A DNA stretch of 61,064 bases, filler included, from Basidiobolus ranarum (lineage: Eukaryota), in assembly GCA_040143965.1 (NCBI GenBank). It is 5 parts of 5 records of this genome, joined end to end, with 100 filler letters (N's around TTAATTAATTAA, not from the genome) between each part and the next. Parts side by side here need not be neighbours in the genome. Positions count along the whole stretch, not along the records: positions 36,720 to 48,846 come from JASJQH010000565.1; 4 more parts are not named here. One strand, given 5' to 3'. Positions 12,151-55,871 of this stretch are shown here, piece after piece. Both the position numbers and the translations under genes were made by a program. Numbering within the stretch: the stretch's first letter is position 1; each line of letters begins with the position of its first letter. Under the pieces are notes generated by a model. That model made no database searches, was not told the origin of the DNA, and saw only the letters and a list, made by a program, of their open reading frames with translations.

Positions 12151-12250
12151 NNNNNNNNNNNNNNNNNNNNNNNNNNNNNNNNNNNNNNNNNNNNTTAATT
12201 AATTAANNNNNNNNNNNNNNNNNNNNNNNNNNNNNNNNNNNNNNNNNNNN
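12151..12250. other. Artificial contig spacer
   Basis: N44-TTAATTAATTAA-N44, which puts stops in all six frames. Confidence 0.98.
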
Positions 12251-24386: not shown

Positions 24387-24486
24387 NNNNNNNNNNNNNN
24401 NNNNNNNNNNNNNNNNNNNNNNNNNNNNNNTTAATTAATTAANNNNNNNNNNNNNNNNNNNNNNNNNNNNNNNNNNNNNNNNNNNN
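24387..24486. other. Artificial contig spacer
   Basis: N44-TTAATTAATTAA-N44. Confidence 0.98.
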
Positions 24487-25756
24487 ATGGACGATATTTA
24501 TTTACAGGTGGTATCGCTAGGAAACTCCAGAATCAATGTACTACATTTCTGATTTTTCTTTAGTGGTTACTGATAGGGCAGACACAAGTAGATGATCCCT
24601 ATCAGTGCATACTGAATTTGCTTGTTCCAATTTTAGCTCATGGGCAAAAATCCTTTTTCTGCTATCGTTGAGTAAATGCCTGATTTCTTGCAATACTTGC
24701 AGATGATTGATTTCCTGTTAGGGGCACCATTATTGAAGCCTGTTGGACATTAACAGCTCTAAAAAATGCCTGTTCTGCATTGTTTTCCTCAGAATTATAT
24801 CTTCTGAGTTCTTTATTCAAAAGCCTAGTACCAACATATTCCATTTTTATTAGCTCTGATCTTGATTCTAGAGCAATTAAGAGGTTCCCAAACTTGGCTG
24901 GCAGGCTCCTAAGTAGTGTCATGACTAAGTTATCATCATTTAGAGATGCTCTAATGGATGAGAGCTGATCTGCCATAGTTTTTATCCAGTTTGTATAATT
25001 CAGCATAGCATCATCAGATTTCATCTGAATTGAGAATTTTTTTTGCCTATGATATAGCCTATTAGGCAGACTTGTAGTCTCATATAGTCACTCAAGTGTT
25101 TCCTAAGCATTTTGGATGGTTTTGCTAATTGTATGTGCCTCAATCGATAGTTTCTGAGATGTATACAAAGTGTGGAGAGTGCTTTCCTCTGCTCCTTGTA
25201 AAAGGCAAGGACAGCTTCTGGTGGTCCCTTTGGCTCTATTTCCTCTCAGTAACAAAACCCCAAAGGTTCTTGTCTTCTAGCACCATTTGCATCTTGAACT
25301 TCCAAAGGTGAAAGTCTTCATCATCAAACTTCTTGGTGGAAGCAAAAATATTGGTAATAGTACTGGTAGACATTACATTAGCAGCTAGCTTGGGGCTCAT
25401 AACATGATGACATAGTTTAGCTGATTTGGATGTGTTTCCAACAAGATTTGGATTTGTGAATTAGACACTCAAGTTTTATTGAATTGAAGATGTCCTATTT
25501 ACAGTGTACTATGAAATAGGACTATTGGATGTGCTGAGATTGTAACAAACATGCCTGTTAAGCATGGGTGAAGATTTGTGGAGATGTGGAGAAGTTTTAA
25601 GAAAATAGTGAAAATTGGCAAAAGAGTTCTAATTGATACTTCTATCAATTATAGCAATAAACACACATTTTTGAATGACAGAATTTAGTGATAAATAATC
25701 AAAATATCAATGAACCAAGTACTAAATAATGAGATGCTATTTACCTAATTTCAAAA
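24487..25756 (-). mobile_element. Ty1/copia 5' portion: LTR (25405-25756), PBS, degenerate gag and protease
   Basis: The LTR is homologous to 26651-26999 and is followed by PBS TGTTATGAGCCC. gag reads MSTSTITNIFASTKKFDDEDFHLWKFKMQMVL from 25373, with LLRSLP. The protease motif *YIDSGVS lies near 24540. Internal stops. Confidence 0.85.
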
Positions 25757-26650: not shown

Positions 26651-29600
26651 TGTTGAAATTGGAAAAATACTCTCCTTAATTAGTAGTCAGTTTGTCATAT
26701 TCTGATTATTTAGCACTCATTTCTGACATTAAAAAATGCATGTTTATTGCTCTAATTGATAGAACCATGAATTAGATCACTTTTACCAATTGTCACTATT
26801 TTCTCAAAACTTCTCCAAATCTCCTCAAATCTTCACCTATGCTTAACAGGCATGTTTGCTATGATTTAAGCTTTTCCAGTAGTCCAATTTTGTAGTAAAC
26901 TATGAATAGAACATATTTAATTCAACAAAACTTAAGTGTCTAATTCATAAATTCTAATCTTGTCAAGATCACTTCCAAGTGCCCTAAGTACTTTGATCAG
27001 GTTATGTGCCCTGAGCTAGCTTTTAAAGGAATGTCTGCCAGTACTATTATTCACATTTTTGCATCCACCATGAAGTTTGATGGTGCAGACTTTCACCTTT
27101 GAAAGTCCAAGATGGAAATGGTGCTAGAAGACAAGGGCCTTTAGGGATTTGTTACAGGAGAAGAAATAGGGCCAAAGGGACCATCAGAAGCCATCCTTAC
27201 TTTTACAAGGAGCAGAGGAAGGCACTCTCTATATTTTGTCTACATCTCAGAAACTCTCAATTGAAGCAAATACAATCAGTCAAAACCATTCAAAATGCTT
27301 GGGAAACATTTGAAGGACTACATGAGACTACAAGTCTGGCTAATAGGTTCTATCCTAGGCAAAAATTATTCTCACTTCAGATGAATTCTGATGATTCTAT
27401 GATTGATCATGTAAATTGGATAAAAGCTGTGGAAGATCAGCTCTCATCCATTGTAGCCCTTCTAAATAAAGATGACTTAGTCATGACACTACATGGGAGC
27501 CTGCCAGATGAGTTTGGGAACCTCATAATTGCCCTAGAATCAGGTTCAAAGCCATTAACAATGGAATATGTTGGTGCTAGGCTTTTGAGTGGGGAATTAA
27601 GGAGATCCAACTCTCAGCAAGATAATGCACCACAGGCATTTTTTACTGGAATCCCAACTCAAAATTTGTACAACCAAGAAATCAATAAATTGCATTCTGG
27701 GCATGCAAACTTGGCCAAAACTAATGAAATAAGCTGTCAAACATGTCATAGAAAATTAGGCAACATTGGGGAACAAAGACTGACCCAAAATATCTTAAAT
27801 CAACTTGTTTCAGGCTTAGAAATTGAAAACATCACCCAATTGGATATGTGTGAGGGTTGAATATATGGAAAACATCAAAGAAAGCCCTTATGCAGCTGTG
27901 GAAAGATCAAATCCACTTAGAATCTTACCCTGAATTGTGCTGATCTATGTGGGCCCATGAAAAATGTCTTTCTAGGTGTGAAAAGGTGCTCTATGACCTT
28001 CGTTGATGACAAAACAAGATATACTTAGGTATTCTTTCTCAATTCAAAATCTGAAGCCTTAGCTTTGTTCAAGAACTACAAAGCAATGGTAGGGAAAGAA
28101 TCATCACAAAAAATAAGGGTACTATGGAGTGACAATGGTGGAGAACACTGCTCCAAAGACTTTACTAGTTGTTGTTCTGATCATGGATTTAAACAACTAA
28201 GTACTGAATCTTTTACTCCACCACAAAATGGAGTTACAATATGTGTTCATAGGACCATAGTGGAGATTGCAAGATCAATGTTACATCATCAAAAGTTAAA
28301 TTAGATTACCAATGTTGTGCTGAATCAGTCTCCACTGCAGGCTATACAAAAAACAGATGCCCAGCATGATTGCCACAAAATTTTACTCCATTTGAAGACC
28401 TATATGGATCAAAACCAAGTGTGGATCATCACAGGTTCTTTGGTTGCACAGCATATTCCCTAATTCCAGCTCAAAAACACTCTGAATTGGAACCCAAAGG
28501 CTGAAAAAGCATATTTCTTCATGATTATGATGGAGCTAAGGCCTACATACTGTACTATACAGAAAATCAGAAGTTAATCACATGCAGAGATGTGATTTTT
28601 GATGAAAAAGCAAATTTCTCACCTCAAATCACAACTCATGATTCAGAAAACACACTCAACAGTATGCAGGAAGTGTTGGCCCAAATTCCAGCTGTATCTG
28701 TGCCCTATTCTGCCAGAATTTCAGTCCCAATTTCATCAGTTCATGATTCAGGGCCCAGAAGCTCTTCCAGAAGGAGATATAAGCCTGAAAACAGATGGAA
28801 CACTTCCAATGATGATGCATATGCTTTTGCATCATGGTGTGAGAAGCCACAGACTCTAGATCAAGCTCTGGAGTGTCTGAAATCATAATCATGGGTAAAA
28901 GCAATGTTGGATGAGTTTTCTTCACTTCAGGGCAATAAAACATGGGCTTTAAGTCCTCTACCATCAGGGAGAAAGCCAATAGGTTGCAAATGGGTCTACA
29001 AAAGTCAAAAAATGAGCTCATGGAACCATAGAAAGGTACAAAGTAAAATTAGTTACATAAGGCTATTCCCAGACTCCAGGAGTTGATTTAATGAAGCATT
29101 TACTGCAGTAGCTATGCTTAGCTACATTTGATCAGTCAGGGCACTTTCAGCTGCCCATAATTGTAATTAACATCTAATGGACGTAAAACAGCCTTTCTGA
29201 ATGTAAATCTAGCAGAAGAGGTCTATAAGGAGCAACCAGATGGATTTATTGACCCAAAACATCCTAATAGAGTCTGAAAACTGCAAAATTGCAAGATTGA
29301 CTTAAACAAGCCCTCAGGGCATGGTACAAAAGATTGATACCAAATTGAAATCAGCAAAATTTCAGAAAAGCACAGCAGATCACAATATTTACATCAAAAA
29401 AACTGGAATCAGGATCCTCATCTTGGCACCTTATGTGGATGACATTATCATAGCCACAAATGATCTTGAAGCACTTAATCAGACAAAGGGCAGCTTATCA
29501 AACCAATTTGAGATGATTGATATGGGTGAATTAAGTTATTTTCTTGGTGTCCAAATCAAGTCAGATAAACCCAATCAGAAAATCATGCTGAAGCAGTCTA

Positions 29601-36619: not shown

Positions 36620-36719
36620 NNNNNNNNNNNNNNNNNNNNNNNNNNNNNNNNNNNNNNNNNNNNTTAATTAATTAANNNNNNNNNNNNNNNNNNNNNNNNN
36701 NNNNNNNNNNNNNNNNNNN
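36620..36719. other. Artificial contig spacer
   Basis: N44-TTAATTAATTAA-N44. Confidence 0.98.
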
Positions 36720-37055
36720 AGCCTAGTCGGAAATGATGTTCCTCTTCTCCGCTTTGCAATGATCCATGCTACCAAATACCTATCCATTGCTTTGAGTGAT
36801 GTGAAAGGAAAGGAGCTTGGACTCATTGGTCTAGTAGAAGGTGGATTCTCACGTAACTACCCAGGTACCGATATCAAAGTTACTTTTGATGGATCCATTA
36901 CCGTGGTCAAGAACGGACGGGCACAAGAGGTTGATGCACCATCCGGTACTTACACATTGACTGTTAAGGGACTCAAGCCATTTGGTAACCCTAATACACC
37001 TGCTGACTTTGACACTTGGACTTCAGCTCCATTTGAAGTGAAGAGAGCAAATTAA
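36720..37055 (+). CDS. 3' end of a large fungal S8 subtilase (C-terminal domain; partial)
   Basis: The frame is open from the contig start. GTYTLTVKGLKPFGNPNTPADFDTWTSAPFEV matches the GxYxxxxxxLKxFGxxxxxxDxxxWxS C-terminus of PA/Fn3-containing fungal subtilases. Confidence 0.65.
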   Translation, partial: SLVGNDVPLLRFAMIHATKYLSIALSDVKGKELGLIGLVEGGFSRNYPGTDIKVTFDGSITVVKNGRAQEVDAPSGTYTLTVKGLKPFGNPNTPADFDTWTSAPFEVKRAN

Positions 37056-38145
37056 TTGTGAACTCAGAAAAGGATATTCAATTAGAATGATTAATCTGCA
37101 AATTCATCTATTTCAACCCTAATAAATAATTATTGATACCTTCTCTGATTTCGATAGATTAGGATATCCTAAAAAACAGTAATCGACTTTTAAACTTTAC
37201 AGAGTCAAAGTTTCTCTGCCATAAGCAATGCAGTTACTACATTAGGAAGTAAATAGCAAATACATTATCATGTCACTCGATGGATCTTATGATGAACTTG
37301 AGTGACGAAGCAGGCTTCCTTGGTATACGTGTTCGAGATTTCCGGTTAAAGGTTACTTATGGCGTTTGTACGCGACTAAATTAAAATATCAACACTATAA
37401 GAATATTATACGTAAGTACTTCAGATTAGTCTCAGCTTCAATCTACTTTAAAACAAGACTAAGGCGAAATAGTCGTAGGAGCCTAGATCGCCATAGATAT
37501 TAATAGAAATGGATAGCCCATTCCGAGTCTTACGTAGTGCCAGAACAAGCATGTGTACATTGATCAGCAAATCAATTGTTGCGTTTAATCTGAAGTTGGT
37601 TGAAAAGCAATATGTTCTAGTTCCATTATTCCGTCCCGGTTATTATAAATTTTATGTCCAACAAGTGTTTACATAAGCATTGAACATTTGGTAGCGTAGT
37701 GAGTAGTTCTAAAGACACCAACCCTTGATTAAAAACCTATGGGATATACCCATATATATCATGATCAGGGAGTTTCCCTTCATTTTGGGCGATAATTTCA
37801 TGACTTGAAAATATCCTCATGTTGGCATTGATTGGTTTGTGTGGCTGCAACTCTGACACTCTACATTATAAGCTCTCCATTTGTTATAACTACAGTTTCA
37901 ATTCGAGCTTTTCTCACAAACTCAACCATGGAGTCTAAGTGCTATGAAAGTATAGAGACGACGGCTATACAGTTGCTACAGCAAATTATGAATTGGTATC
38001 AGTAGAGCTGCTCTGCAATATTAAGAGTAGCAAGGGTTTATAATGTTGTGGTAGTGATATGATGGAGCCAATCCGCAAATTGTCTCAGTAAATTGGAAGA
38101 CTGAATTCATTAAGCATCAAAAAAGATGGTCTTCATTTGTACTTT

Positions 38146-38261
38146 AATGGTTGCGGAGAATATAAAAGCAACATGAGATTAAATTTACCAGTGCAAAGGC
38201 AGAAATGGTTGCGGAGAATATAAAAGCAACATGAGATTAAATTTACCAGTGCAAAGGCAGA
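38146..38261. repeat. Perfect 58-bp tandem duplication (2 copies)
   Basis: aatggttgcggagaatataaaagcaacatgagattaaatttaccagtgcaaaggcaga at 38146 and at 38204. Confidence 0.9.
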
Positions 38262-39840
38262 TAAAGATATATACCAAATACTATGATGCATTTATCCGAA
38301 CAGGAATAAATATATACCGATGAGTTCCAGTCCCAAGTCCCCAAAGTAGATAAGTTAGGTACAGTATATATCAGGGAAAGAAAACCAAGTTGATTGTATT
38401 TGATGCATCACCAGCAGCATGCATTCGGAATAGTATGGCCTGTCTTGTATACTATTTGTGATGACAATATTGCTTAGTTTGGTATTGGCTAACAAATAAC
38501 ATGTCTTGCCTACTATCAATAAAAAGAATGAAATATAATATGGCCATTTCTTGTAGTCACTTTTATCGTTATTTTTACCATGGATAATATTTCCAGTGTA
38601 TTTGGTTCTCACTGGCCACGGCTGCTGAAGCAAGTATCTAAAGGAAATTCATATTTATTAAATTACTGATTTGTATCAATTATCCGGTTTTATACAACAT
38701 GCTATGGTATAACCATACAACTCAACTAAATACAGATATTCTTCATACTGGTAATTGCAGTATTTGACAGTTCACCAATTGTAAAACCGAATGCCATTAA
38801 CTTGAGGCAGTTAGAAAACGAGGAGCCGCGCTATCATTTATATGAACACTATCATTGGGAGAGAGAGAGAGAGCGTATATCTTTCATCTCTTATATGCAC
38901 TATCTGACTAATCTTCCTACTCATGAAGTTCTAGAATAAGTTACTTTCAGCTTCAGCTAATGGAATACTCCTAAGAAACCCATTAATATAGCAAGTTTTA
39001 GTATGTTACAATAGAATCCTTCCATCATACAAACATTATAGGAAAGAGCTGAAGGAGGAGATTGAAGTTAGAGAAATTATGAACTAGGCACAATAGCGAA
39101 ACTTGCCTCCATTATGAGATATATTCTCGATCAAACTTACCTATCGGTTCTTTGCCATAACATAGAGGTGGAATATTTTACCTCTCATATTTCATCAGAT
39201 ATATCTTTATAAAGTATGCTCATCGATTCCTAGGGATAATTAGGTAACTGAGGAAAGTGATACCATTATAAAAAACACTTGAATAGTTAACAGTTTATAA
39301 ATTTCAAATCAAATATTGTTATCATGCGATAATATAAAATTTATATTCCTTGCATCTTGTAAATGACCTCACTGACTTGCCAAGATGTTGGTATATTTAT
39401 GATGCAAGTAGTGCTGTGTATTCATGGTCTAGATTTTTCGACTAAGAAAGCATACAATATGATATGGCATGGAGTTGAACGAGTAGAGCTATACAAATAT
39501 GGTGTGTTCGCGAGATATATTCTGAATAGCCTGCTGTAGATAATAATCAAAAAATCCGCTCTAGTGTAGGGGAAACCTTATGTTGGCTACGTATCCTATA
39601 GCGAATACAGCTACCAATATACAGTAGCCCGTGCTCATGAAGATTTGAGAGTTCTGTAAATGTTACTGCTCCTCTTACCCAAGAGAGTACATCAAAATAT
39701 GGGAATAGTGAAAGTGGTTTTCTGATTTCCCAAGTGTCCGTAAGAGGAGCTGCCTCTGTGAAGACTATAAATACATTGATAAGCTTCAGTTCTTAACAAT
39801 TTCCCATACTTATCTTTTTGGTACTATTCTTACATCGAAA

Positions 39841-39965
39841 GGAGATAGCGATCCTAAGGTACTAATTGTAATGGTCACGGAACCCATGTTGCCGGTATCA
39901 TTGGTGCACGTGACAAAAACTTTCTAGGTGTTGCTCCTGATGTCACTTTGGGTGCTTATAAAGTG
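39841..39965 (+). pseudogene. Subtilase (S8) relic containing the catalytic His motif
   Basis: GDSDPK, then a frameshift, then [35 protein letters not shown]. No continuing subtilase sequence on either side. Confidence 0.75.
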
Positions 39966-40883
39966 TTATTAATTTTGATGTTTAGACTTCTGCACCATTT
40001 GAATTGAGAGCTAAATGATCTTTGAAAAATCCTGTCTTAATTGAGCAACTTACCTGAGGGTTTTGCTCTTCAGTCCTAATAAAGAATTTTGGACCTCTTG
40101 CCAGTCGTAGTATATGGTAGAAAACCACTCTGAACAGGTATTAATTGTCACTTGACATTGAGATGGGTTGATGTTTAAAATTGTATGTAAACTAACGCCA
40201 ATAACTCGAACTTGATCGAAAATATAGTATTGAGGGAAAAGGAGGAAGCAGAAATGGAAATGTTCATCGATTGTATTGCCATCTGAATCACAATCATAAC
40301 TAGTTTTGAAGGATCTTTATTCCATATCCTTATGCATGGTTGACTGATAGAAGTACACATGACATAAGCAATACAATTGCTACATTTAGATTAGGTACAA
40401 AATGTTTTGCAAGGTCACTTGATAGATCTGGTGATAGCGCTTGAGGGACAAAGTAAAGACAGGCTTCGTAGAGTAAAAATCATTATAAAATTAGAACCAG
40501 TTGAACCTAGATGTTTTAGATTTAAGGCTAAAAAGATTGTTACACATGATGTTCGTACACTACTAAATTAAAATGCTGATGTCATATAAATTTAATAGTG
40601 CACTCAGGCTTCGGTCATTATTAGGTTATCAATGTTACAGATTAGTCTTAGCCTCTTTCTGCTGCTAAACAGGATTAAGACACAACAGGCGTAGGAAGAA
40701 AACCCACTTAAATAAACATGTATAATAAATATAAAGCGCCTGCATTGTTAAGCAGTTCGTGCAAGCAAGCAGCTAGAATTGTTTGGTACAACTACATATA
40801 GTTACCTATAGTTAAACTCATTCCTACCCTTTCTTCACCTACTTCTAAAAGCTCTAGTTTTTGAATTGTCACCACTTAATAGA

Positions 40884-42574
40884 ATGTTGAGTTTTGTCAA
40901 AAACTGGTGGAAAAGTGTAGACTTAGACGACATGCTAGGGTAAGACAATCTTCTAAAGGATTTTGTTGTAGTATATAAACTCATTGGAGAGTAAATGTTA
41001 TCTGTACTCTACTATCTCTTTAACCAAATTTCACAATATTTGCTATTTTAGCTATGACACGTTTAAAGTAGTCCATGTTCGTGATCGTCGTTTAGGATTT
41101 ACTTTTCATGGTTTCCAAGCTGCTATCTTTGCATACATTATTTATTCAGTTATACATAATCAGCTCTATCTAAAAAAAGAGGCACCCGTACCAGGTACTA
41201 TCAGCTCGTTGAAAATAGTTTTCTAGAAATTCTCATCATAACTGGAATGAAATTTAACTAGGTGCAATCAGAGTGTCATTACTAGAGCCCGCAGGTGACC
41301 TACAGAATTCTACCTATTGTCAGCAGAAACCTTGTGTATATTGGGGAGCAAACCAAATATTGTATTGTTTATCGAGTTTTTTTCTATTCAGAACTTCATT
41401 GGAAAATAACCGATTTTCTTGAATAATCTTTAGGTTTAATCCTGGAGCCCAAGGGGTATCATTTTTAACAACGAGAATTTCGACCAAAATATTTCCTGCA
41501 CAGGCTGGATGTAATAGTATTCTTTCCACTACACCTGGGTGCAGGTACAATTTACCGAAGCCTACAGAAAGTCCAGAATATTATATTTCTGATTTGGAGA
41601 GATTTACAGTATGTCAAATAATTTGAAATCTTCTGACTATTAGTCTCATTAACACTTGTCTAGCTAATGATTGAACATTCAGTCCGTGGTACTTCTACAG
41701 GTATCTCTGTCCGTAATGGTGAGATGAAAGGAAGATTACTTATTACTAAAGACAATAATCCATTCTACAACAATGAGACTGAGCTCTCGTTCACTCCCCA
41801 GAATCGACCACCTAGAGTCCCCGGAGATATCATCACAGTAGCTAAGCTTCTACGTGCTTCTGGAGCCAATCTGGATGGTTTGTGATGTACTATTTTAGGA
41901 CTTGGTTAAACTGATAACTGATACATTTCATACAGCACCTTCCGATGCACCAGGTGCCGATCAAGCTAATGGAGAGAGTTACAGGTCATCTGGAATTGTC
42001 CTTAGTGTGGTTATTCAATATGACAATGATGGAAATGACAAATTTAAGTATTCCTATTCTGCCAACTACATCAAGGGGAATGAGTACAAAATCGAAGAGA
42101 CAATATACAATCCTACTGATGGTTCATATACCGAATTCAATAGACATGGGTAAAGCATCTAAAGTAACCAATATTTTCTTCACTTGTCACTGACAAATAT
42201 TCATACCTAGAATCCGAATCGTTTTTTCGCAAACTGGTAACATTGGTAAATTCGACTTCATGTCACTGTTAACAAACCTGGTAGCTTCTATCGCGCTACT
42301 GAAAACGGCTTCCTTGTTAGTGGAGATTTTCATGTTAAAATTCCTACCACAAAGAAAAATGTATTATGAAGCAAAGTATGAGCATACTGAAGATTTTGAT
42401 GATCTAAGGAAAGGTCGGGAACACAATCCTAATAATGGTGCCAGTACCTCGGAAGAGTTTGACCACGAAAAGGTTAAAAATCCCTCAACCGTTGCATACC
42501 CTCCTGATTGTCACACAGAATCCTCTTCCAACGTGTTTGTAGAGATGAACAACATAGGCAAGAGTAACAATTAG
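40884..42574 (+). CDS. P2X purinoceptor homolog (ATP-gated cation channel family), 7 exons, ~421 aa
   Basis: Exons 40884-40939, 41052-41194, 41262-41361, 41434-41608, 41664-41877, 41936-42149 and 42211-42574 splice in frame. N-terminal YDTFK (YxTxK), RDRRLG plus TM1, ectodomain, RHGIRIVFSQTGNIGKFD plus TM2, C-terminal YYEAK (YxxxK). Confidence 0.88.
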
Positions 42575-43148
42575 TCAACGAACCCCAATTTATCTGAGAA
42601 AACAACAAACTTGGTATATATAATTATTGCTTTCCTAATTTTGCGATACAATCATGTTCATTCTAGAAAATTCATCATTTCCTACCTAATAAACAAATGT
42701 ACAATCTGAACTATATAAACAATTTGACTTTCAGATGGAGCTTAAACGCATTGGCTGCAATATTAAATATCATCTAACTACAAACATCATGATAATTTTC
42801 ACCATATTCCAATGCTATAATAGTATATCTTGCTCCTAATTACTACACCATGTACTTCGCCGAACAGACCCGAAGTTATATAATGTTGAATGTTACACTT
42901 TTCGTTCAACACCCATTGCAGTTTATTGGCATAGTAGAAGGATTTACAAGTTCTAATGGAAAATTGCTTAGTATCCAACACAAAAGGGAGATCCATCACA
43001 TCAAATTCAGGGTAGTGAGAGATAAATTTAGGAGTATTGATACAAATTTAGTTACAAAAGGCTGTATTTCGGAGCCAACTCTAAACGAAGTATTTAGCAG
43101 AGTAATCATGGCCACATCATTCGCTGCACCTTTAACCCATTGACCGGA

Positions 43149-44405
43149 TCACTGGTCAAGGCACACTACTGCATCCACTTTCAGGATGTGAAGAGCCTTG
43201 GCATGAGCTGTAATGGCTTCACATGTCATGCTTTGAATCTCGTCTTTAGTGAGCTTGCCGCCGACTTTGATGTTGAGACAGATATCTGCGGCGACATCAA
43301 TACCTAGTACTCGTAGTCGGGCGACTATACTCTCACATTCATCATCGTGAGAGCCCTTGGCCTCAGTGCTTTTTCCCAGGTTGAGTACATTGTTCAGACA
43401 CACATTGACATCAGATTTGATGATCCCGAGTACTTTAGCTTTGGCCATGATACCCTCACATCCCAAGCGATCTATATGAGACTTTGACCAGACACCAGAG
43501 CCTTTGACTCCGACACAAACATTGGTATCAAGTTTGATCCCTAATAGACGGAGATGTGCCGCAATATCATCACATTCTTTGTCTGCGACATCATGAGCAT
43601 CTCCTGCTTTCCTTAAGTTCAAGATATTATTCAAGCAAACGTCGACATCGGCCTTAATGATACTAAGTACCTTGGCATGGGCCACAACATCATCACATGA
43701 CATACGCTCGGTTCTTTCTTTGGACCATCCACCAGCTCCTGAGATTCCAATACAGACATTCGCATCCAGTTTGATTCCAAGTAATCGAAGGCGAGCGGCA
43801 ATATCATGGCACTCGTTATACTCTACACCATCGGATCTACCAGGCTTTACTACCTGAAGACCATTTTTCAAGCAAATATCAACATCTGCCTTAAGAATGT
43901 GAAGTGCTTTGGCATGAGCCACAATTTCCTCACAACTCATGCCCCCAAATTGATCTTTAGATGGCCAAGCTGCATCTTTATTCTGGAGACAGACATCTGC
44001 ATTGATTTGAATGCCAAGTACTCGAAGTCGTGCGACAATATCGCGACAGGTGTGAGATTGATCACCCTCATTCTGACCATGTCGATTTTCTGGAAGTATT
44101 GAAATTTTGTTATCACCTAGACAAATCTTGGCATCAACGTTGATACCAAGAGCCTTGACTCGGGCCACAAGTCCATTACACGGCAGGTCAGCTGGATTGA
44201 TTAGGTCAGTATCACCACTGCTCCCATCAGGTCGGTTAGTGCACTGCTCTAGATGTATGTTCGCATTGTAGCGGGTATTAAGATGGGATAATAAATCCTG
44301 GCAGTAGCTGATTCCAACTGGGGGAACGTACCCTCTCTCTACAACAAGACTAGAGCCAAGAAGGGCACTAGATAGAACTAACAAAAGGCTATTGGCGGAG
44401 TACAT
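43149..44405 (-). CDS. Secreted Cys-bounded repeat protein, 418 aa (unknown family, paralog 1)
   Basis: Intronless ORF with a signal peptide, an N-terminal C-x19-C unit and 9 modules of type CxDIVARLRLLGIxxDAxVC / CxDIVAHAKVLxIxKADVxVC. Confidence 0.85.
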   Translation of the reverse strand: MYSANSLLLVLSSALLGSSLVVERGYVPPVGISYCQDLLSHLNTRYNANIHLEQCTNRPDGSSGDTDLINPADLPCNGLVARVKALGINVDAKICLGDNKISILPENRHGQNEGDQSHTCRDIVARLRVLGIQINADVCLQNKDAAWPSKDQFGGMSCEEIVAHAKALHILKADVDICLKNGLQVVKPGRSDGVEYNECHDIAARLRLLGIKLDANVCIGISGAGGWSKERTERMSCDDVVAHAKVLSIIKADVDVCLNNILNLRKAGDAHDVADKECDDIAAHLRLLGIKLDTNVCVGVKGSGVWSKSHIDRLGCEGIMAKAKVLGIIKSDVNVCLNNVLNLGKSTEAKGSHDDECESIVARLRVLGIDVAADICLNIKVGGKLTKDEIQSMTCEAITAHAKALHILKVDAVVCLDQ

Positions 44406-46051
44406 TTTGTATAGATCTATGGTATGGAGAGGAGAGTAGGAGAGGATACGCTTAGTTGTGTATTATTTCTTCATCTGCATGTCAGTTTTATATCTACCTG
44501 AGCATTCTCTGGTTCGACTTTACTCAGAGGTTATATGTGGATATTATCCGATTGGAATGCGGAGGATTACCGAATCTATTCTAGCAGCAGTTAGATCGGA
44601 ATTGCTTATTGATGCATAGCATGAGGGACTTTGAACCATTTAGTCAACAATAGGCAGTAACATTATATTCCTCGCTTTAACTATATTTAGCAAGGAATGG
44701 GAAACATGTTCAAGGACTTTGAAGGGTTTTCCAATTTTGATGTCTAAGTTTAGCGCATTTAACTGAAACCAATTCGATTATGCAAATATAATTTGGATCA
44801 TGATAACAATGGATAACTTCTTATCGTGAACAACTCCAATATGCAACTAAATTCATGCACGCTTAGACTGTCTGTATTCGAATGTTCTCTGTTTAACAAT
44901 TCTAAACGAGCAACTGTTTTACTTTTACATTTACGTCAGTTAACGTAACTTACACAGCAAAGTTAAGAGCAATATCAAACACAGTATTATAGAACCTGTG
45001 ATCTTTTCAACAAATCTAGGAACTATGCGCAAACGTCACAATATATATATACCGCGTGCTGTACATGGATATTATCATTCGCCCTCCCATTTAAAACTAG
45101 GTGGTAACATATCAAAAAATAACATCAGCTCGTGCTTGTGAGATATAATCGCTTGTGTTGGAGTTAACTGAGGATTAACGATTACTTTAATTAATGTAGA
45201 GTAAGGGCCCACAACCACAATCAGATTCCCTGTGATACATGAACAGTATTACACTTAGGGAGTTACATTAAAGTGAGCGTACGTTGTAAAGTCAGGTAGA
45301 ATCTGAATATTGTGCAATTTGCTAGAGACTCGATGATGATAAACATTATGAATATCCCAACTAAATCGTGTTAATTTGGGAGATTAGCTCACAATAGGCG
45401 CTTCGATTTTTATAGCACCGGATATAAGTACATAGTTGCCTGAGATTTACCCTGTTGATCACTCAACTTTTAAGGCAGCACCAGGAAAATAAATATGGTG
45501 GTAGCATTGCATACATTAAATCTCTGAAATGCACGTATCAAAAAACTACAGATAGTAACCACGATAGCAATTGTTGGTTGAACAATGAGATTAAGATCTG
45601 AAAAAAGAATTTTTCAAACTTGGTTAAAATGATTTTAATAACTCAAAATGTTACAATGAAAATTAATTCCTTGTATCAAAGTTATTTATTGATTTTACCA
45701 CCAGAATGAGTGATTATTTCGTGTAGCGGTAGCACCTTGGCACCTTCCGAATAATCAAGGTTGAAAATTCAACAGACAAATTCATTGGGTGCTTGTGATT
45801 AGTAAGAGTTAATTAACGCAGGCTAGTTCACATTCAACAATGCCTTAATTTGATTAGGGGTTAACCAATGTGATCGAAATTTCCGATGTCAGTTGATGTT
45901 TTACTTCAGCAATCCCTACGAGGAAGATAGCAAACCCGCCTTTCAGAAAATATCTATTTAAGACTAACCAGTAACTGCTAAAGTCAGTATTCTCATCTCC
46001 TTAGAGTTCTATCCTCTCTCTCTCACTCTCCATATACCTGTCACTAATAGA
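44406..46051. promoter_or_regulatory. Divergent intergenic/promoter region between the repeat-protein paralogs
   Basis: The genes are head-to-head. Both have a similar CT-rich leader (tatcctctc...ctctccata) just before the ATG. Confidence 0.45.
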
Positions 46052-48013
46052 ATGATTCCCGCCAACAACCTGTTGTTACTTCTATCTAGTGCTCTTCTTG
46101 CCTCCAGTTTTGTTGTAGAGAGAGGATACGTTCCACCTGCTGGAATCAGCTACTGTCAAGATCTGTTGTCTCACCTCAACACTCGCCATGGTCTGAACAT
46201 TGATCCAGGTATGTGCAGTGGCCGACCTGATAAGAGCGATGATGGGCTTGAGCTTCTAAATCCTGCTGATTTGTCATGCGACGAACTTGCAGTTCGAGTC
46301 AGGGCTCTTGGTATCCATATTGATGCCAATGTTTGTCTCGGAAATATTGTTAATGGGTCTCATCGAAATATCAAGAGAGGTGAGGATGATAATGAGTATG
46401 AGCGTCAGTGTAGAGACATCGTTGCCAGACTCAGACTTCTAAAGATCAATACCAACACCGATGGTGTCAAGGTAGATGCCAATGTATGTGTAGGCCTTCG
46501 AGGTACTGGTGAATTGTCCAGAAATGAAATTAATCGAATGGGGTGTGAAACTCTTGTGGCCCGGGCTAAAGTACTCGGTATCCTTGATGTGGATGTCGAT
46601 GTTTGCCTACAGAATGTTAGAGAACCACGCAAACTTCGAAGATCCGGTGATGATGAATACAATGAGTGTAAGGATATTGTCGCCCGCCTTCGTTTGTTGG
46701 GGATCCAAGTGGATGCAAACGTTTGCCTTGGTGTCAAAGGCAGTGATGGATGGTCAAAAGACTATATCGACCGATTGGGGTGCAGTGATATCGTCGCTCA
46801 TGCTAAAGTACTAGGTATTCTCAAGGCTGATGTCAACGTCTGCTTAGGCAACATCTTCAACCTTGGTCACACTAGTGATGAATATAATGAATGCTCTGAG
46901 ATCGCAGCTCGACTTCGTTTGTTAGGCTTGAAAGTGGATGCAAACGTATGCCTTGGTACCAGAGGGAGTAAAGGTTGGTCAAAGGACCATATCGCTAAGT
47001 TGAAGTGCGAAGATATTGTTGCCCATGCTAAGGTACTAGGAATTCTTAAGGCTGATGTCAATATCTGTCTAGGTAACATCTCGAACCTCGGCCACACTCG
47101 TGGCTCCAATAATGAAGAGTATAGCGAATGCTCCGATATCATAGCTCGACTTCGTTTATTGGGCTTGAAGGTGGATGCAAATGTATGCATTGGTATCAGA
47201 GGGAGCAAGGGTTGGTCAAAGGATCACGTCGACAGGTTGAGGTGCGAGGATATTGTTGCCCACGCTAAGGTACTTGGAATTATCAAGGCTGATGTCAATG
47301 TGTGCCTTGGCAATATCCTGAACCTCGGACACTCTCGAAAGTCAAATAGTGATGAATACAATGAATGTCCTGACATCGCTGCCCGACTTCGCATATTAGG
47401 TCTCAAGCTGGATGCTGATGTTTGTATTGGTGTCAAAAGTGCTGGTGGATGGACCAAAGACGACGTACACCGTAAGGGATGTGAAGACATTCAAGCCCAT
47501 GCTAAAGTGCTCAACATCATCAAAGCTGATGTCAATGTTTGTATTAGAGATATTTTAGCGCCTTCTAAATCTCGCAGAGCTGTTGCAGACGCTGAGTACA
47601 ATGAATGCAATGATATTGTAGTCCGACTTCGCTTACTTGGTATCAAACTAAATGCTGATGTCTGTATTGGTGTCAGGAGAGCTGGTGGATGGTCAAAGGA
47701 AGACACCGAGCACAGAAAATGCCATGATATTGTTGCACACGCAAAAGTACTCCGTATTCTCGAAGCTGATGTTGATGTTTGCCTTGCAAATGAGGCAAAT
47801 AATAGAAAATCCGAACACACAGATTACAACGAGTGTGAAGATATTGCGGTTCGACTCCGTTTACTTGGAATCAATATAAATGTGAATGTATGTGTTGGCG
47901 TCAAGAGTCATAGTGGATGGTCAAAAGATGATGTTGAGCAAAAGAGTTGTGACGAAATTGTTGCACATGCTAAAGTTCTTCGTATTCTTGAAGCAAATGT
48001 CAACGTTTGTTGA
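46052..48013 (+). CDS. Secreted Cys-bounded repeat protein, 653 aa (unknown family, paralog 2)
   Basis: Intronless ORF with a signal peptide and the VERGYVPP.GISYCQDLLSHLNTR N-terminus shared with paralog 1. 15 repeat modules. Confidence 0.88.
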   Translation: MIPANNLLLLLSSALLASSFVVERGYVPPAGISYCQDLLSHLNTRHGLNIDPGMCSGRPDKSDDGLELLNPADLSCDELAVRVRALGIHIDANVCLGNIVNGSHRNIKRGEDDNEYERQCRDIVARLRLLKINTNTDGVKVDANVCVGLRGTGELSRNEINRMGCETLVARAKVLGILDVDVDVCLQNVREPRKLRRSGDDEYNECKDIVARLRLLGIQVDANVCLGVKGSDGWSKDYIDRLGCSDIVAHAKVLGILKADVNVCLGNIFNLGHTSDEYNECSEIAARLRLLGLKVDANVCLGTRGSKGWSKDHIAKLKCEDIVAHAKVLGILKADVNICLGNISNLGHTRGSNNEEYSECSDIIARLRLLGLKVDANVCIGIRGSKGWSKDHVDRLRCEDIVAHAKVLGIIKADVNVCLGNILNLGHSRKSNSDEYNECPDIAARLRILGLKLDADVCIGVKSAGGWTKDDVHRKGCEDIQAHAKVLNIIKADVNVCIRDILAPSKSRRAVADAEYNECNDIVVRLRLLGIKLNADVCIGVRRAGGWSKEDTEHRKCHDIVAHAKVLRILEADVDVCLANEANNRKSEHTDYNECEDIAVRLRLLGININVNVCVGVKSHSGWSKDDVEQKSCDEIVAHAKVLRILEANVNVC

Positions 48014-48781
48014 GAATTAGTTCATCATGTTGCGACATTTACTGATGAAGTAGTTATACAGATGATGGAATATTTCAGTAGGAGCCTGTACCCTAATGCA
48101 AACCGCAAATTTACCGTTCAATCTTGATTTCTGATATAGAACATGATTTGGTTGGATTTTTTACTTGTGATATCTGAAATCATGACGAAGTAGAGCGCAA
48201 TGCCATGGAAAATAAACGAAACCAACTTTAAAATGCTCCATAAAGGCCAACTATATTTAATGAGTACGCCAGAAAGTACTGAAATATTATGCATATTATA
48301 TATTGCTATATTACTGGAGCCTGGATTGATTATTCCATGCTATACAAATCTACTAGAGTAGTAATAGCAGTAAGGTTTGGCGGAACTCTCATAAATAAAA
48401 TAAATAGTTGTCAAGAAGATAGCAGTGGTCAAGTAGCAACGCACATATATGCATAAAACCGAGTACATAATCAAACTAAACCTATTTAGTCCGTCATGCC
48501 CCCTCCCTATACGAAGTTGTAGATTTACCGATATGGCCATTATGCAATCTCTGATGAAACCTACCATCAATAGATATTGTTCGTGGAATAAAGTGGGTAT
48601 CGAGATATATCCGAGATTAATTGGCATTATACTTAGACATTTACAAAGGAGTTTATACTTCGAATTGGATGTAAGCATTAATATAAAATAACAAATTGCC
48701 GACAATAAACATCACATCTTTCTCCTCCTTAGAGCTCTATCCTCTCTCTCTCTCTCTCTCCATATACCTGTCACTAATAGA

Positions 48782-48846
48782 ATGATTCCCGCCAACAATC
48801 TTTTGTTACTTCTATCTAGTGCTCTTCTTGCCTCCAGTTTTGTTGT
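48782..48846 (+). CDS. 5' end of a third repeat-protein paralog (cut by contig end)
   Basis: ~48725-48846 is nearly identical to ~45995-46116 (leader plus MIPANNLLLLLSSALLASSFV). Confidence 0.75.
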
Positions 48847-48946
48847 NNNNNNNNNNNNNNNNNNNNNNNNNNNNNNNNNNNNNNNNNNNNTTAATTAATT
48901 AANNNNNNNNNNNNNNNNNNNNNNNNNNNNNNNNNNNNNNNNNNNN
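48847..48946. other. Artificial contig spacer
   Basis: N44-TTAATTAATTAA-N44. Confidence 0.98.
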
Positions 48947-49138: not shown

Positions 49139-49622
49139 ATGAGTGGTATGTAGTAGCTATTTATTGTTGTTGTTATCATGTACTTACACTTTGTAGATAT
49201 ATGTTCCGAGGCTAACAAATGGATAGGAGTAGCCTACCAATTGGGAGGGAATACTAAAAGCGGAGTCGATTGTTCTCACCTTGTACACCAGGTATTCAAA
49301 GGATGTAACAAAAGTTACAACTATACCACCACTGGTGCTTGGCCTCCCAAAGAATTTCGAGTAATTCCCAAATCTGATGTACAGCCTGGTGATGTAGTTA
49401 AATTTGCTGGACACGTAGGAATAATGATAAGCCAAAATGAGTAACACTTAGCTAGAATTTCTTTCACCTTCCTCAGTACTCTAAGGCCTTTCTTAATTCA
49501 GGATGATCAGTGCAGAAAGTGGGAGCCAAAATAATCCTGGTGCAGTCAAGAAATCTTCTGTTGGGCCCAATACCTATTGGGGAAAAACCGCAACTGTCGG
49601 GAACTATTATAGATATCAATGA
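49139..49622 (+). CDS. NlpC/P60 (peptidase C40) family protein, 3 exons, 123 aa
   Basis: Exons 49139-49145, 49197-49440 and 49502-49622 give MSDICSEANKWIGVAYQLGGNTKSGVDCSHLVHQVF...DVQPGDVVKFAGHVGIMISQNEMISAESG...YWGK...YYRYQ*. The G-x-x-Y-x-x-GG, DCS, QPGD and GHVG motifs are present. TATA-like TATATAAA at 49081. Confidence 0.88.
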
Positions 49623-52776: not shown

Positions 52777-55700
52777 ATGTATACAAATTTCTCTGACCAA
52801 TCTAACGTTAAAAGCTCTGAAGATGATTTGATGGCGTCAAATGCTCAACTTCCCCTTCGGAATCTTCACGAGGCTACTTGCACAACTCAAGAAGCATTTG
52901 CCACGATCTCACTAGACCCAGTCACTACTACCACAATTGTTACTACCACGACCTCAACTTCATATCCACCGTTGCATTTTCAACCACCTGCATATCGAAA
53001 TCTCGATCCTCAACTCTATCCTCTAGCTCATATTCCTACACCACCTGCACTCAGGAATTTTTACTTTGATTTCAATGGTCATCCAACAATATTTCGTGAA
53101 AGTGATTCTTACGAAGCTTGTATAAAGCAGGTATTTTATTTTATTATTTGCATTAATTCGACACTTGCTGTTTGCTTACTCAATGTACTTAAAGGCTAGC
53201 GGTAACTCTACCATCACAACGGTTGAGGAATCTGAAGTAAATTCTAGTAAGACCGGTCGTAAACGTTCTTTAACAGCCATAGACAACGTCAGAACGGAAG
53301 GTTGCTTGGGTACTCCGATCAGAGAAAACAGCTCCCGCAAAAAACTCAAACCTTCGATTCACATTGAAACACCACCACACACAGTTTCATCCAAGTTTCA
53401 GAAAGAAGTATACACTCCATCTTGTGATTCCACATATGAACCTGAAGAATACGAAATACCTTCCTCTTTAGCTTCTATATTAAATGATCCAAGGCACGAT
53501 ACTATATGGAATGAGCCGACTTCCCCAGCACTACCTTCCCCTTGTTTATCTCCCACAACGCTTTCCGATCGTAATCTTCCCTTCTTACCAGAGGACTCTC
53601 AAGATGAATCGTTTAGCGATACAAAGAAGGAAATCTCTACTGATGTCTCCCTTGTAAATTATGATAGCAATTTCAAGAGTGAATCTATATCATCATCTAG
53701 CTTAACGAACATGCTAAGCTCATTTGACGCACTTCCATATTCTCTTCAATCTTATATGCTTTTTCAAATGCTTCGGAGATGTCCCACTAACACACTTCAA
53801 TATGTCAGCTCAGTCATATTGCCGACACTTAAATGTGATTTTTTTGGGCTTCTTCCTTATTGCCTAAGTCTTAAGATTGCCAGTTTTTTGGATTGTAGAA
53901 GCATGTGCAAAGCTGCACAGGTCAGTAAGAAATGGCGAAAAGTGATCGACTCTGATCCAATCACTTGGAAGAGATTAATTGAACGGGAAGGCTATATAAT
54001 TGACGAAGTAGACGAACACTCTTTAATGAAGTGTGTGGGTAACCAACACACTATTTCGAATTTGCAAGTACCTAAAACTGCACCTAGAGAATCATCACCT
54101 TGTGATTCTGATCAAGGTTACAAATACGCATGTAAAACATCGTCCAGTTACGAACAAGGGTACTTCAATATCAAGAGCGAGTCTCACACTCCTTTGGCCA
54201 ATAGTAATAAGATCATGGAAGAACCGCCATTGGAATATCACGACACTAAATCTGAACTTACAGCTGAAGTTAGAAAGTTATCGAAATATCACGCCCTAGA
54301 AAAAGAAGTGACTCATTTTGAGAAAGAATATCTTTCAGCCTCCGCTGATAGTTTCCATTCTGGAGTAAAGAAAACTTCTACTGAGAATGAAGATCATCAA
54401 GGACCGCCAATGAATTTACCTTCTGTTGCTAACCATGGATATAAGCAAGTTTTTCGCCGGCATTACTTGATTCAACGTAATTGGATGGAAGGAAAATCCA
54501 AATCCATATCATTCCCTGGACATGGCCATTCGGTTGTTACATGCTTACAATTCGACTCGGACAAAATCATTTCGGGCTCTGAAGACCAATGTATTAATGT
54601 TTACGACATAAAAACTGGGCAATTGAGAAAGCGTTTGGAAGGACACGATGGTGGTGTTTGGGCCTTGCAATATGTGGGCAATACCCTAGTATCTGGGTCA
54701 ACTGACCGAACAGTCAGAGTTTGGGATATTGAAAAAGGGATATGTACTCATATTTTCTATGGACACACTAGTACTGTTCGCTGCCTACAAATCATAATGC
54801 CAAGTAATGTCAATCCCAACCCAAATGGACCCCCGGTCATGGAGCCGCCTTTTCCTATAGTAGTAACTGGGTCTCGTGACTCGACTCTTCGGATCTGGCG
54901 TCTTCCTTCACCAGTACACGACCCTCCGTACTTACCTAGTCACCCCAACTCTCCTATGAGTCAAGCTAACCCCAACCCATTTTTGATCAACACGCTTACT
55001 GGGCATACACACTCTGTTAGAGCCATAGCAGGACTTGGAAACCTTGTTGTTAGTGGAAGCTATGACACTACAGTGCGGGTTTGGAACTATATGACTGGAG
55101 AGAATATTTGGCGAATGGTTGGACACACCCAAAAGGTTTATAGTGTTGTTATTGATAAAAAGCGAAAACGCTGTATGAGTGGAAGCATGGACTGCACCGT
55201 ACGTGTTTGGAGTCTTGAGAATGGCAGTTGCCTGCACATTCTAGAAGGTAACTTTTATTTTTTGGCCATACCATATGACAACATTGCTAACTCTTGTTTT
55301 TGTAGGGCATTCATCGCTGGTAGGATTGCTGAACTTGACACCTGAATATCTAGTATCTGCAGCAGCAGATTCCACTCTTCGTATTTGGTCCCCTGATGAC
55401 GGGACATGCTCAAATGTATTATCTGCTCACACTGGAGCAATTACGTGCTTTCAGCACAACTCTGAAAAAGTAATTTCAGGATCTGATGGCACATTAAAGA
55501 TGTGGGATATTCGAACTGGAAAGTTTATTCGAGACCTTCTAACCGGATTGTCAGGCGTGTGGCAAGTCCAATTTGATCATCGTCGCTGCGTGGCTGCTGT
55601 GCAAATAAATTCAGCTACTTGGTTTGAGGTCTTGGACTTTGGAGTGGATGGTATTGAAAACTCCACCCCTATTCATGAAATTGGGGGATCTGTTGATGAA

Positions 55701-55871
55701 CAAATGTCAGTATTTTCCGACTCTGAACTCGATCCGACTTCCATCGAAACTGAGCCGAGCAGTGCGCAGCCCGCCATGCAGTATTCTTATCCACTTCTTC
55801 CATCGCAAACCCATTTTCCGTCCTCTAATCATCATTTAAATATCTCCTCATCGTTGCATTTTAGTCTTTAA
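52777..55871 (+). CDS. CDC4: SCF F-box/WD40 substrate receptor Cdc4, 3 exons
   Basis: D-domain and F-box (DFFGLLPYCLSLKIASFLD...AAQVSKKWR), WD40 repeats (VVTCLQFD, GHDGGVWAL, GHTSTVRCL, GHTHSVRA). Introns at 53131-53194 and ~55248-55305. Confidence 0.92.

Follow-up and report, generated by a model that had tools for sequence, protein, structure and literature searches.

What kind of protein is encoded by the cluster of cysteine-patterned repeat genes on one contig of the Basidiobolus ranarum genome, and what might such proteins do for the fungus? The window, by which we mean the whole stretch of DNA analysed (61,064 nucleotides), consists of five contigs of ~12.1 kb each, with joints made of N44, a 12-base motif carrying stops in all frames, and a further N44, and positions 36720-48846 therefore represent a single contig of 12,127 bp. 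This contig carries two complete genes, here called p1 and p2, and the beginning of a third, p3 (Table 1), in line with an earlier note on this DNA that had reported three paralogs, two of them complete and one cut, and our analysis confirms that the cluster of paralogs encoding cysteine-bounded repeat proteins is real. Both complete genes are intronless and encode 20 (p1) and 32 (p2) cysteines, and p2 terminates right behind its last cysteine. The 22 codons of p3 encode a peptide identical to that of p2, with two synonymous differences at the DNA level, and p3 is cut at the end of the contig itself rather than at a gap within a scaffold.

Table 1. Positions, along the whole window, of the genes, their parts and neighbouring features.
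Feature	Position	Strand	Remarks
p1, complete single-exon gene, 418 aa	43149..44405	-	signal-peptide-like N-terminus, head module, 9 modules
Head module of p1, C-x19-C, residues 35-55	44241..44303	-	cysteine spacing
Module array of p1, 9 modules	43161..44180	-	pattern scan
CT-rich tract 5' of p1, looser match	44406..44465	-	comparison with p2 and p3 upstream
CT-rich tract immediately 5' of p2 start codon	45990..46051	+	common to p3; looser in p1
p2, complete single-exon gene, 653 aa	46052..48013	+	signal-peptide-like N-terminus, head module, 15 modules
Head module of p2, C-x19-C, residues 35-55	46154..46216	+	in N-terminal region common to subfamily
Module array of p2; 14 regular modules by pattern	46277..48010	+	pattern scan
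DNA-level tandem array within p2, period 237 bp (79 codons, A+B + spacer)	46688..47435	+	Tandem Repeats Finder
CT-rich tract 5' of p3, same as that of p2	48720..48781	+	comparison with p2 upstream
p3, third paralog, first 22 codons	48782 (ATG)..48846	+	cut by contig end
Artificial inter-contig spacer, non-genomic	48847..48946		recurs at 12151, 24387, 36620

Behind the N-terminal head module, both complete proteins are built of modules bounded by cysteines, with C-x18-C modules (type A) alternating with C-x19-C modules (type B), and the series behind the head opens with A, A, B, A, B and continues in this alternation. The alternation and the counts of 9 (p1) and 15 (p2) modules given in the earlier note hold, with one exception in p2, whose second A module is an irregular C-x25-C (residues 120-146). 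A six-frame scan of the window with the module pattern returned 23 modules, every one of them within p1 or p2. Cysteine counts are even in both proteins, and no two cysteines are separated by fewer than 16 residues; that all cysteines pair within modules, as the earlier note had it, is an inference from these counts and positions. Of 114 unique modules compared, 94 have glycine at position 12. The A-to-B linkers had been described as carrying G..GW[ST]K, which is true of some of them: 7 of the 11 contain GW[ST]K, and six of these are among the seven linkers of p2, but the motif is missing from the other 4, and p1 has it in only one of its four; the shorter W[ST]K is found in 8 of the 11.

The single module had been taken as the repeating unit, but Tandem Repeats Finder detected a period of 237 bp in p2, in two overlapping rows of 2.8 and 2.4 copies with 79% and 78% matches, and the unit that evolves is thus the A+B pair of 79 aa. 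There are four regular A+B units in p1, six in p2, and five in P0003, a relative from B. meristosporus. A relative of 129 aa, P0017, has a single A+B pair between a signal peptide and a Gly-rich tail, and wherever a relative looks complete and has all its cysteines at module ends, its cysteine pairs come in even numbers (2, 4, 6, 8, 10, 14 or 16), implying that the modules act in pairs. Among the ten regular units, dN/dS is ~0.15 (finite estimates were obtained for 26 of 45 pairs, with dS close to saturation), which indicates that the A+B unit is under purifying selection; by part, the A module has a ratio of 0.15 and the B module one of 0.10, as against 0.41 in the A-to-B linker (23-26 of 45 pairs finite). 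The internal units of P0003 are 92-95% identical to one another, the terminal units of p1 and P0003 are 78% identical, and copy number would shift through unequal recombination of the 237-bp unit. The alternative that these ORFs are non-functional, representing decaying repeats or an assembly artefact, could be suspected from the break of the contig within the third copy, as is expected where repeats disrupt assembly, and from the location of the B. ranarum relatives on very short contigs of 1.3-2.6 kb. However, the frames stay open for 418 and 653 codons with all cysteines retained, the low dN/dS is that of constrained sequence, and relatives with matching ends occur in two Basidiobolus species, so that this explanation is close to refuted.

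The relatives all come from one genus. An exhaustive search among 1.84 billion representative proteins gave 15 matches, all from Basidiobolus, with lengths of 129-582 aa and no fused form among them, and all 11 matches of a profile search were from Basidiobolus as well. Horizontal transfer from bacteria was considered and dropped because there was no match outside Basidiobolus among those 1.84 billion representatives. The cysteine spacing is kept in 25 relatives from two Basidiobolus species. Over its full length p1 is similar to P0003 (582 aa, 50% identity), p2 is 76% identical over 384 columns to P0005, a B. ranarum fragment, and P0006, another B. ranarum fragment, stops at the same cysteine as p2. 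These homologues, among them K493DRAFT_308797 of B. meristosporus CBS 931.73 and K7432_018244, K7432_018151, K7432_016940 and others of B. ranarum, have the N-terminal head, the C-x18-C and C-x19-C spacing and the A+B units in common with p1 and p2, vary in unit number, and are annotated only as hypothetical or uncharacterised; several relatives connect their A+B pairs by Gly/Asn- or Pro-rich low-complexity stretches, which gives them the look of structural proteins. In UniRef, two relatives are named 'Secreted protein' and one, P0014, 'Hydrophobin'. P0003 bears the precomputed Pfam accession PF28059.1, a family that the local Pfam copy lacks, and it is possible that the unnamed four-cysteine repeat family of Basidiobolus corresponds to PF28059. 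Both p1 and p2 fit the family pattern of paired C-x18-C and C-x18/19-C modules with a mid-module glycine behind a signal-peptide-like N-terminus, and p1, p2 and p3 would appear, from their sequences, to be members of a secreted protein family restricted to Basidiobolus. The literature searched contained no paper describing the family, and a search by its accessions and locus tags, PF28059 included, found none.

The earlier note had not recognised the family, and our searches bear this out. With the local Pfam copy (without PF28059), no accepted family was found for p1, p2 or P0003-P0020 at E-values up to 0.01-1. The only hits, Urease_alpha and DUF1889 among them, were below threshold or summed over repeats and were judged spurious because no single stretch passes the cut-off; Urease_alpha, with 24.7 bits over the whole of p2 against a cut-off of 23, was read as summed repeat noise. 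A profile search of PDB sequences gave two chains at an E-value of 0.78, both flavodoxin, which we treated as noise. Foldseek gave no match at E ≤ 0.001 among the 50 listed from the PDB (best E-value 2.5), VIA-align 2 gave 43 of 48,161 chains with Z ≥ 2 and none with Z ≥ 5 (best Z 2.8), and no saposin chain was among the matches listed by either program, all of this with a model of pLDDT 61. For whole p1 and one p2 unit, a feature search of the ESM Atlas returned no usable match, and the structural neighbours found there all had a TM below 0.5, with Atlas models at a pLDDT of 0.47 and 0.45. The 59-residue core of the unit may represent a fold that has no solved relative.

The earlier note had proposed disulfide-closed amphipathic beta-hairpins stacking into a solenoid or an amyloid-like or hydrophobin-like layer, in the role of hydrophobins. 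The alternating aliphatic/polar pattern that it had described is present, as the spectrum of mean module hydrophobicity is stronger at 160-180 than at 100 degrees in each half of the module (power at 180 against 100 degrees: first half, 0.37 against 0.20; second half, 0.56 against 0.21), and this period-of-two profile fits strands better than amphipathic helices. The alternating hydrophobic residues flank the nearly invariant glycine, their parity, as we read it, would permit one common face in a cysteine-closed hairpin, and proline occurs in positions 3-11 of only 2 of 114 modules. Chou-Fasman-type propensities give a near tie between helix and strand. However, both AlphaFold2 models (mean pLDDT 52.1 and 61.3, from 7 and 19 aligned rows, many of which are repeats of the same proteins) give every module a helix of 10-12 residues in its first half, agree in where these helices lie, have no strand (pTM 0.39), and leave the B-to-A linkers disordered (pLDDT 23-46); in the two-unit model, pLDDT is 66-75 over the first unit and 32-46 in the B-to-A spacer. 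Helices, the lack of strands and disordered linkers argue against a continuous solenoid, with model confidences of only 52 and 61. Proline and acidic residues are favoured near the start of helices, and the modules would suit such a start in that position 2 is proline in 19 of 114 and position 2 or 3 is acidic in 79 of 114. Within-module covariation gave neither a consistent helix pattern nor the anti-diagonal ladder of a hairpin (sets of 78 and 36 unique modules, with Neff of 47 and 15). A prediction of self-association for three copies of one unit, made without an alignment and with the chain fold uncertain, gave a score of 0.00 and a mark of 0.32, which speaks neither for nor against assembly. 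Taken together, the models suggest disulfide-stabilised mini-domains on flexible spacers rather than a beta-hairpin solenoid, although the periodicity of the modules is beta-like, and the interpretation in the earlier note is as a whole partly supported.

The comparison with hydrophobins (PF01185, PF06766) bears on the same proposal. Hydrophobins are likewise small secreted fungal modules stabilised by cysteines and with an amphipathic pattern, and the name given to P0014 points the same way, but they are proteins of ~100 aa with an eight-cysteine pattern that includes two adjacent Cys-Cys pairs, whereas p1 and p2 are long arrays in which this pattern is absent; an adjacent cysteine pair occurs in none of the 21 listed proteins, and hydrophobin Pfam models gave no match for p1, p2 or P0003-P0020 (E-values up to 0.01-1). 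With GRAVY values of -0.05 and -0.20, neither mature protein is hydrophobic as a whole. We regard the beta-hairpin layer as distinctly unlikely. Hydrophobins are not known from the Basidiobolus lineage, and it could be imagined that the family is the genus's own stand-in for hydrophobins or repellents, with disulfide-closed amphipathic modules that self-assemble into a surface layer or an adhesive on aerial and adhesive spores in a fold unlike any solved structure, an idea that we consider quite improbable.

The reading that we prefer, at a probability of about 0.45, is that p1 and p2 are lineage-specific, multivalent extracellular scaffold or surface proteins. Each would begin with a signal peptide and the conserved head, followed by a tandem array of 79-residue units. 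The core of a unit, ~59 residues with four cysteines (C-x18-C-x18-C-x19-C), would comprise the A module, the conserved Gly/Trp linker and the B module and would fold alone into a small mini-domain, largely helical and held by disulfides. A spacer of 16-21 residues, polar, little conserved and probably disordered, comes next. Independent cores on disordered spacers would resemble beads on a string and hence form a multivalent extracellular scaffold, whose most likely role would be at the surface, in association with the wall or in the matrix (for adhesion or protection), as a protein that tolerates proteases. Secretion, as claimed in the earlier note, is predicted by an N-terminal hydrophobic stretch with a best 10-residue Kyte-Doolittle mean of 2.7 (a heuristic rather than a dedicated signal-peptide predictor) and agrees with C-termini that have no hydrophobic tail; there are no N-glycosylation sequons in p1 and two in p2. 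Against a scaffold stand the strand-like module profile, the RR in some spacers, which would allow processing, and the absence from p1 and p2 of the usual marks of fungal wall proteins and adhesins, as neither has a GPI-type C-terminus or a Ser/Thr-rich region and both are poor in aromatic residues. The Als and Flo adhesins of the yeast wall are comparable in their intragenic tandem repeats, copy-number change and homogenisation of internal units, all found in the p1/p2 family, but differ in having the Ser/Thr-rich repeat and GPI-type C-terminus, and p1 and p2 have no Pfam match to them.

The spacers raise the question of whether the arrays are instead polyprotein precursors, cut between B and A by Kex2 or another basic-residue protease into two-disulfide peptides of ~60-79 residues, which by analogy with Kex2-processed repeats, Ustilago repellents and prosaposin-type proteins might be antimicrobial, signalling or surface-active. 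A signal-peptide-like N-terminus and at least three repeats are present, most spacers have a basic residue ~8-12 residues past the last cysteine, and their predicted disorder would make them accessible. However, the positions of these basic residues are not conserved, and KR, RR or KK is found in none of the three B-to-A spacers of p1 and in only two of the six of p2 (RR in both), which also speaks against the release at basic linker sites that had been suggested earlier. P0003, the B. meristosporus protein nearest to p1, has no dibasic pair between its regular units, and P0015, P0017, P0021 and P0023 have no KR, RR or KK at all. Rep1, the repellent precursor of Ustilago maydis, yields short peptides that are cysteine-free, whereas the units here have 79 aa and four conserved cysteines. 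In PMC6339444, repeat proteins processed by Kex2 (KEPs), a class of secreted fungal tandem repeats that includes Rep1, are defined by a signal peptide, internal repeats of 3-352 aa and KR, RR or KK between them; p1 (four units) and p2 (six units) have the first, by the heuristic, and at least three repeats, but a dibasic pair in only 2 of 9 B-to-A spacers. Processing of this kind seems to us unlikely.

Two other precedents share architecture with the units. Prosaposin and amoebapore-type precursors are tandem arrays of small, disulfide-stapled helical domains with linkers, a likeness to p1 and p2 in architecture only; saposin-like domains have six cysteines as opposed to four per unit, and no Pfam SapB match was found. 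The helix-loop-helix of twin Cx9C (CHCH) proteins, like the A+B unit, has two cysteine-bounded segments, a loop and four cysteines per domain, but the spacing is x9 rather than x18/x19, p1 and p2 are predicted to be extracellular, and neither the sequence nor the fold searches gave a match.

Independent tandem domains on flexible spacers, as modelled, would also fit a multivalent binding protein or effector, in which every A+B domain has a ligand, for instance a polysaccharide, a lipid, a microbial surface or the mucus of the host gut, with avidity supplied by the array. The conserved tryptophan and Gly-rich loop in each A-to-B linker could serve such a purpose, and the family is genus-specific, expanded and clustered, with five relatives on a single 205,583-bp contig of B. 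meristosporus. In contrast, there is no similarity to known binding modules in Pfam, PDB sequences or fold searches, aromatic residues are scarce (F 0.2-0.3%, W 0.8-1.0%, Y 1.0-1.6%), and within the core, constraint is weakest in the A-to-B linker. This makes binding, too, a distinctly doubtful explanation.

With regard to a scaffold or surface role, Basidiobolus is an isolated fungal lineage, which the NCBI taxonomy currently ranks as a separate phylum. It lives in the guts and dung of amphibians and reptiles, produces adhesive spores as well as spores that are discharged by force, and is able to infect humans. The surface or matrix material on which these habits depend may reasonably be sought in a family that is genus-only, expanded and clustered, under purifying selection and apparently secreted. 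The present value of the finding is limited, as the structural models are weak and many fungi have secreted repeat proteins that are rich in cysteine and specific to their lineage. The genes also resemble each other outside their coding regions, in that a CT-rich tract precedes p2 and p3 and, in a looser form, p1, and this tract is probably a core promoter or 5' UTR.

The two complete genes p1 and p2, together with a third copy on the same contig, belong to what is, judging from their sequences, a real, constrained and genus-restricted family of predicted-secreted four-cysteine repeat proteins without recognisable relatives. p1 and p2 are divergently oriented, and the third copy, whose first 22 residues are identical to those of p2 with two synonymous changes between them, is truncated by the assembly rather than by biology. 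Common to all three copies is a CT-rich tract immediately 5' of the start codon, and such upstream tracts are a mark of strongly expressed fungal genes. Pairs of 44-N runs around a 12-base all-frame stop motif show the window to be five separate pieces of ~12.1 kb each, so that features on different pieces are not genomic neighbours. GC content across the window is 0.34-0.44, and elsewhere in the window genes come as groups of short ORFs, the pattern that a eukaryote with introns should give.

Positions of the repeat genes, spacers and other features along the window
Feature	Position	Strand	Detail
p1	43149-44405	minus	418 aa, uninterrupted ORF
p2	46052-48013	plus	653 aa, uninterrupted ORF
Third copy	48782-48846		starts 766 bp beyond p2 stop, ends at contig end
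Second A module of p2	46409-46489		residues 120-146; C-x25-C, 7-residue insertion
Contig with p1, p2 and third copy	36720-48846		12,127 bp
Artificial spacers	12151-12250, 24387-24486, 36620-36719, 48847-48946		N44 + 12-base all-frame stop motif + N44
P2X receptor-like gene	40975-42574	plus	multi-exon; both family ends matched, PF00864, E 8.5e-07 and 1.3e-08
NlpC/P60 peptidoglycan-hydrolase-type ORF	49160-49444	plus	PF00877, E 4.9e-11
Copia-type LTR retrotransposon gag ORFs	24665-25087, 27081-27857	minus, plus	PF14223, E 3.3e-17, 3.2e-25
F-box-like domain then WD40 repeats	53126-55868	plus	long ORF, runs on in second overlapping frame
Major facilitator superfamily and sugar-transporter ORFs	2692-3765, 14835-16016	plus, minus	first two contigs

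The repeat anatomy described in the earlier note was correct. In both proteins the first module is a C-x19-C head; 9 (p1) and 15 (p2) modules come after it, an initial A (C-x18-C) and then A and B (C-x19-C) in alternation, and every cysteine (20 in p1, 32 in p2) bounds a module. Scanned in six frames for the module pattern, the window yields 23 modules, none of them outside p1 and p2, and GW[ST]K is present in 7 of the 11 A-to-B linkers. The insertion in the second A module of p2 is lacking in P0005, a B. ranarum fragment that is 76% identical to p2. Tandem Repeats Finder reported a period of 237 bp (79 codons) in mid p2 with 78-79% matches, which implies that the duplicating element is an A+B pair plus its spacer; A and B themselves are diverged products of an older duplication of one module. 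Purifying selection clearly acts on the coding sequence: mean dN over mean dS in ten regular units is 0.15 in A modules, 0.10 in B modules and 0.41 in the A-to-B linker, figures that are rough because only 23-26 of 45 pairs were usable, the others being saturated at synonymous sites. The cysteine-pair count is even in every complete-looking member that has all its cysteines at module ends, and in the smallest member a single A+B pair stands between a signal peptide and a tail, both of which observations support the A+B pair as the probable structural unit.

A word-indexed protein search returned seven proteins, namely p1 and p2 themselves and five from Basidiobolus, while exhaustive phmmer against 1.84 billion representatives gave 15 at E <= 0.001, all named B. 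meristosporus or B. ranarum; a profile from 14 divergent members likewise retrieved 11 proteins from Basidiobolus only. No fusion to a known domain showed up among the 15 phmmer matches, as none exceeds 582 aa, the length of the longest. Clustering is characteristic of the family, since five relatives share a single B. meristosporus contig of 205,583 bp. Architectures vary: in some members the head is followed by only a few divergent modules, one member strings ten modules together on short linkers, and in others Gly/Asn- or Pro-rich low-complexity stretches join a single A+B pair or two. p1 is ~50% identical to P0003 of B. meristosporus, with the last units of both 78% identical; given this and the 76% identity of p2 to P0005, the copies in the window are distinct from those sequenced in either species. 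The internal units of P0003 are mutually 92-95% identical, the usual sign of what would be recent expansion or homogenisation within the array.

On p1, p2 and 18 relatives, no Pfam family had an individual stretch that passed. The sole whole-protein score over its cut-off was Urease_alpha on p2 (24.7 versus 23 bits), rejected as summed noise from the repeats, with no single stretch passing. P0003 bears the precomputed Pfam accession PF28059.1, which is missing from the Pfam copy searched here, so the family may already be covered by a recent entry. The PDB-sequence profile search returned just two chains (E 0.78), the ESM Atlas search gave no usable match, and the papers searched make no mention of the family accessions. 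Although UniRef names the relative P0014 'Hydrophobin', it has neither the hydrophobin cysteine pattern nor a Pfam match, and the adjacent cysteine pairs typical of hydrophobins are absent from every protein examined.

The beta-hairpins, stacked as a solenoid or amyloid-like coat, that the earlier note envisaged are made less likely by the AlphaFold2 models. In both models, of whole p1 (7 alignment rows; mean pLDDT 52.1, pTM 0.24) and of two consecutive p2 units (19 rows; 61.3, 0.39), each module carries a helix of 10-12 residues in its first half, and short helices lie at the A-module end and in the A-to-B linker; neither model has a strand, and pLDDT in the B-to-A spacers is 23-46. No solved structure of similar fold came up in Foldseek (best E 2.5) or in exhaustive VIA-align (best Z 2.8), which shows little at such model confidence. 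The hydrophobicity profile, however, points the opposite way, as the alternation of hydrophobic and polar residues noted earlier does appear across the unique family modules, with a period of two on either side of a nearly invariant Gly. Secondary-structure propensity scores are close to a tie, and covariation within modules forms no ladder. Module position 2 is Pro in 19 of 114 modules and position 2 or 3 is acidic in 79 of 114, followed by Leu-Gly, starts that under helix-capping rules would suit a capped helix. We tentatively favour a helix with an extended return segment over a hairpin at roughly 60 to 30.

The most economical reading of p1 and p2 would be a secreted multivalent scaffold, in which independent disulfide-stabilised mini-domains of ~59 residues each would be separated by flexible polar spacers and would change in number through unequal recombination. 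Alternatively, the array might be a precursor cut within its B-to-A spacers to release peptides, in line with the release at basic linker sites once proposed; this is weakened by the presence of KR, RR or KK in just 2 of 9 such spacers, since the definition of Kex2-processed repeat proteins asks for these sites between repeats (PMC6339444). For the scaffold, a structural, adhesive or protective role outside the cell is suggested by the Gly/Pro-rich relatives, the lack of similarity to enzymes or binding modules, a pI close to neutral (6.1 for p1 and 6.6 for p2, both as assumed mature chains) and the CT-rich tracts ahead of the genes. Neither p1 nor p2 has a GPI-type tail or Ser/Thr-rich regions.

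The P2X-like (ATP-gated) gene shares the contig of p1 and is positioned upstream of it; P2X channels have a patchy distribution among fungi. The gag ORFs lie on the third contig. In the F-box/WD40 ORF, the overlap of frames suggests a probable intron or frameshift. The NlpC/P60 ORF, on the contig after that of p1 and p2, may belong among the genes of bacterial type that have been reported in Basidiobolus.
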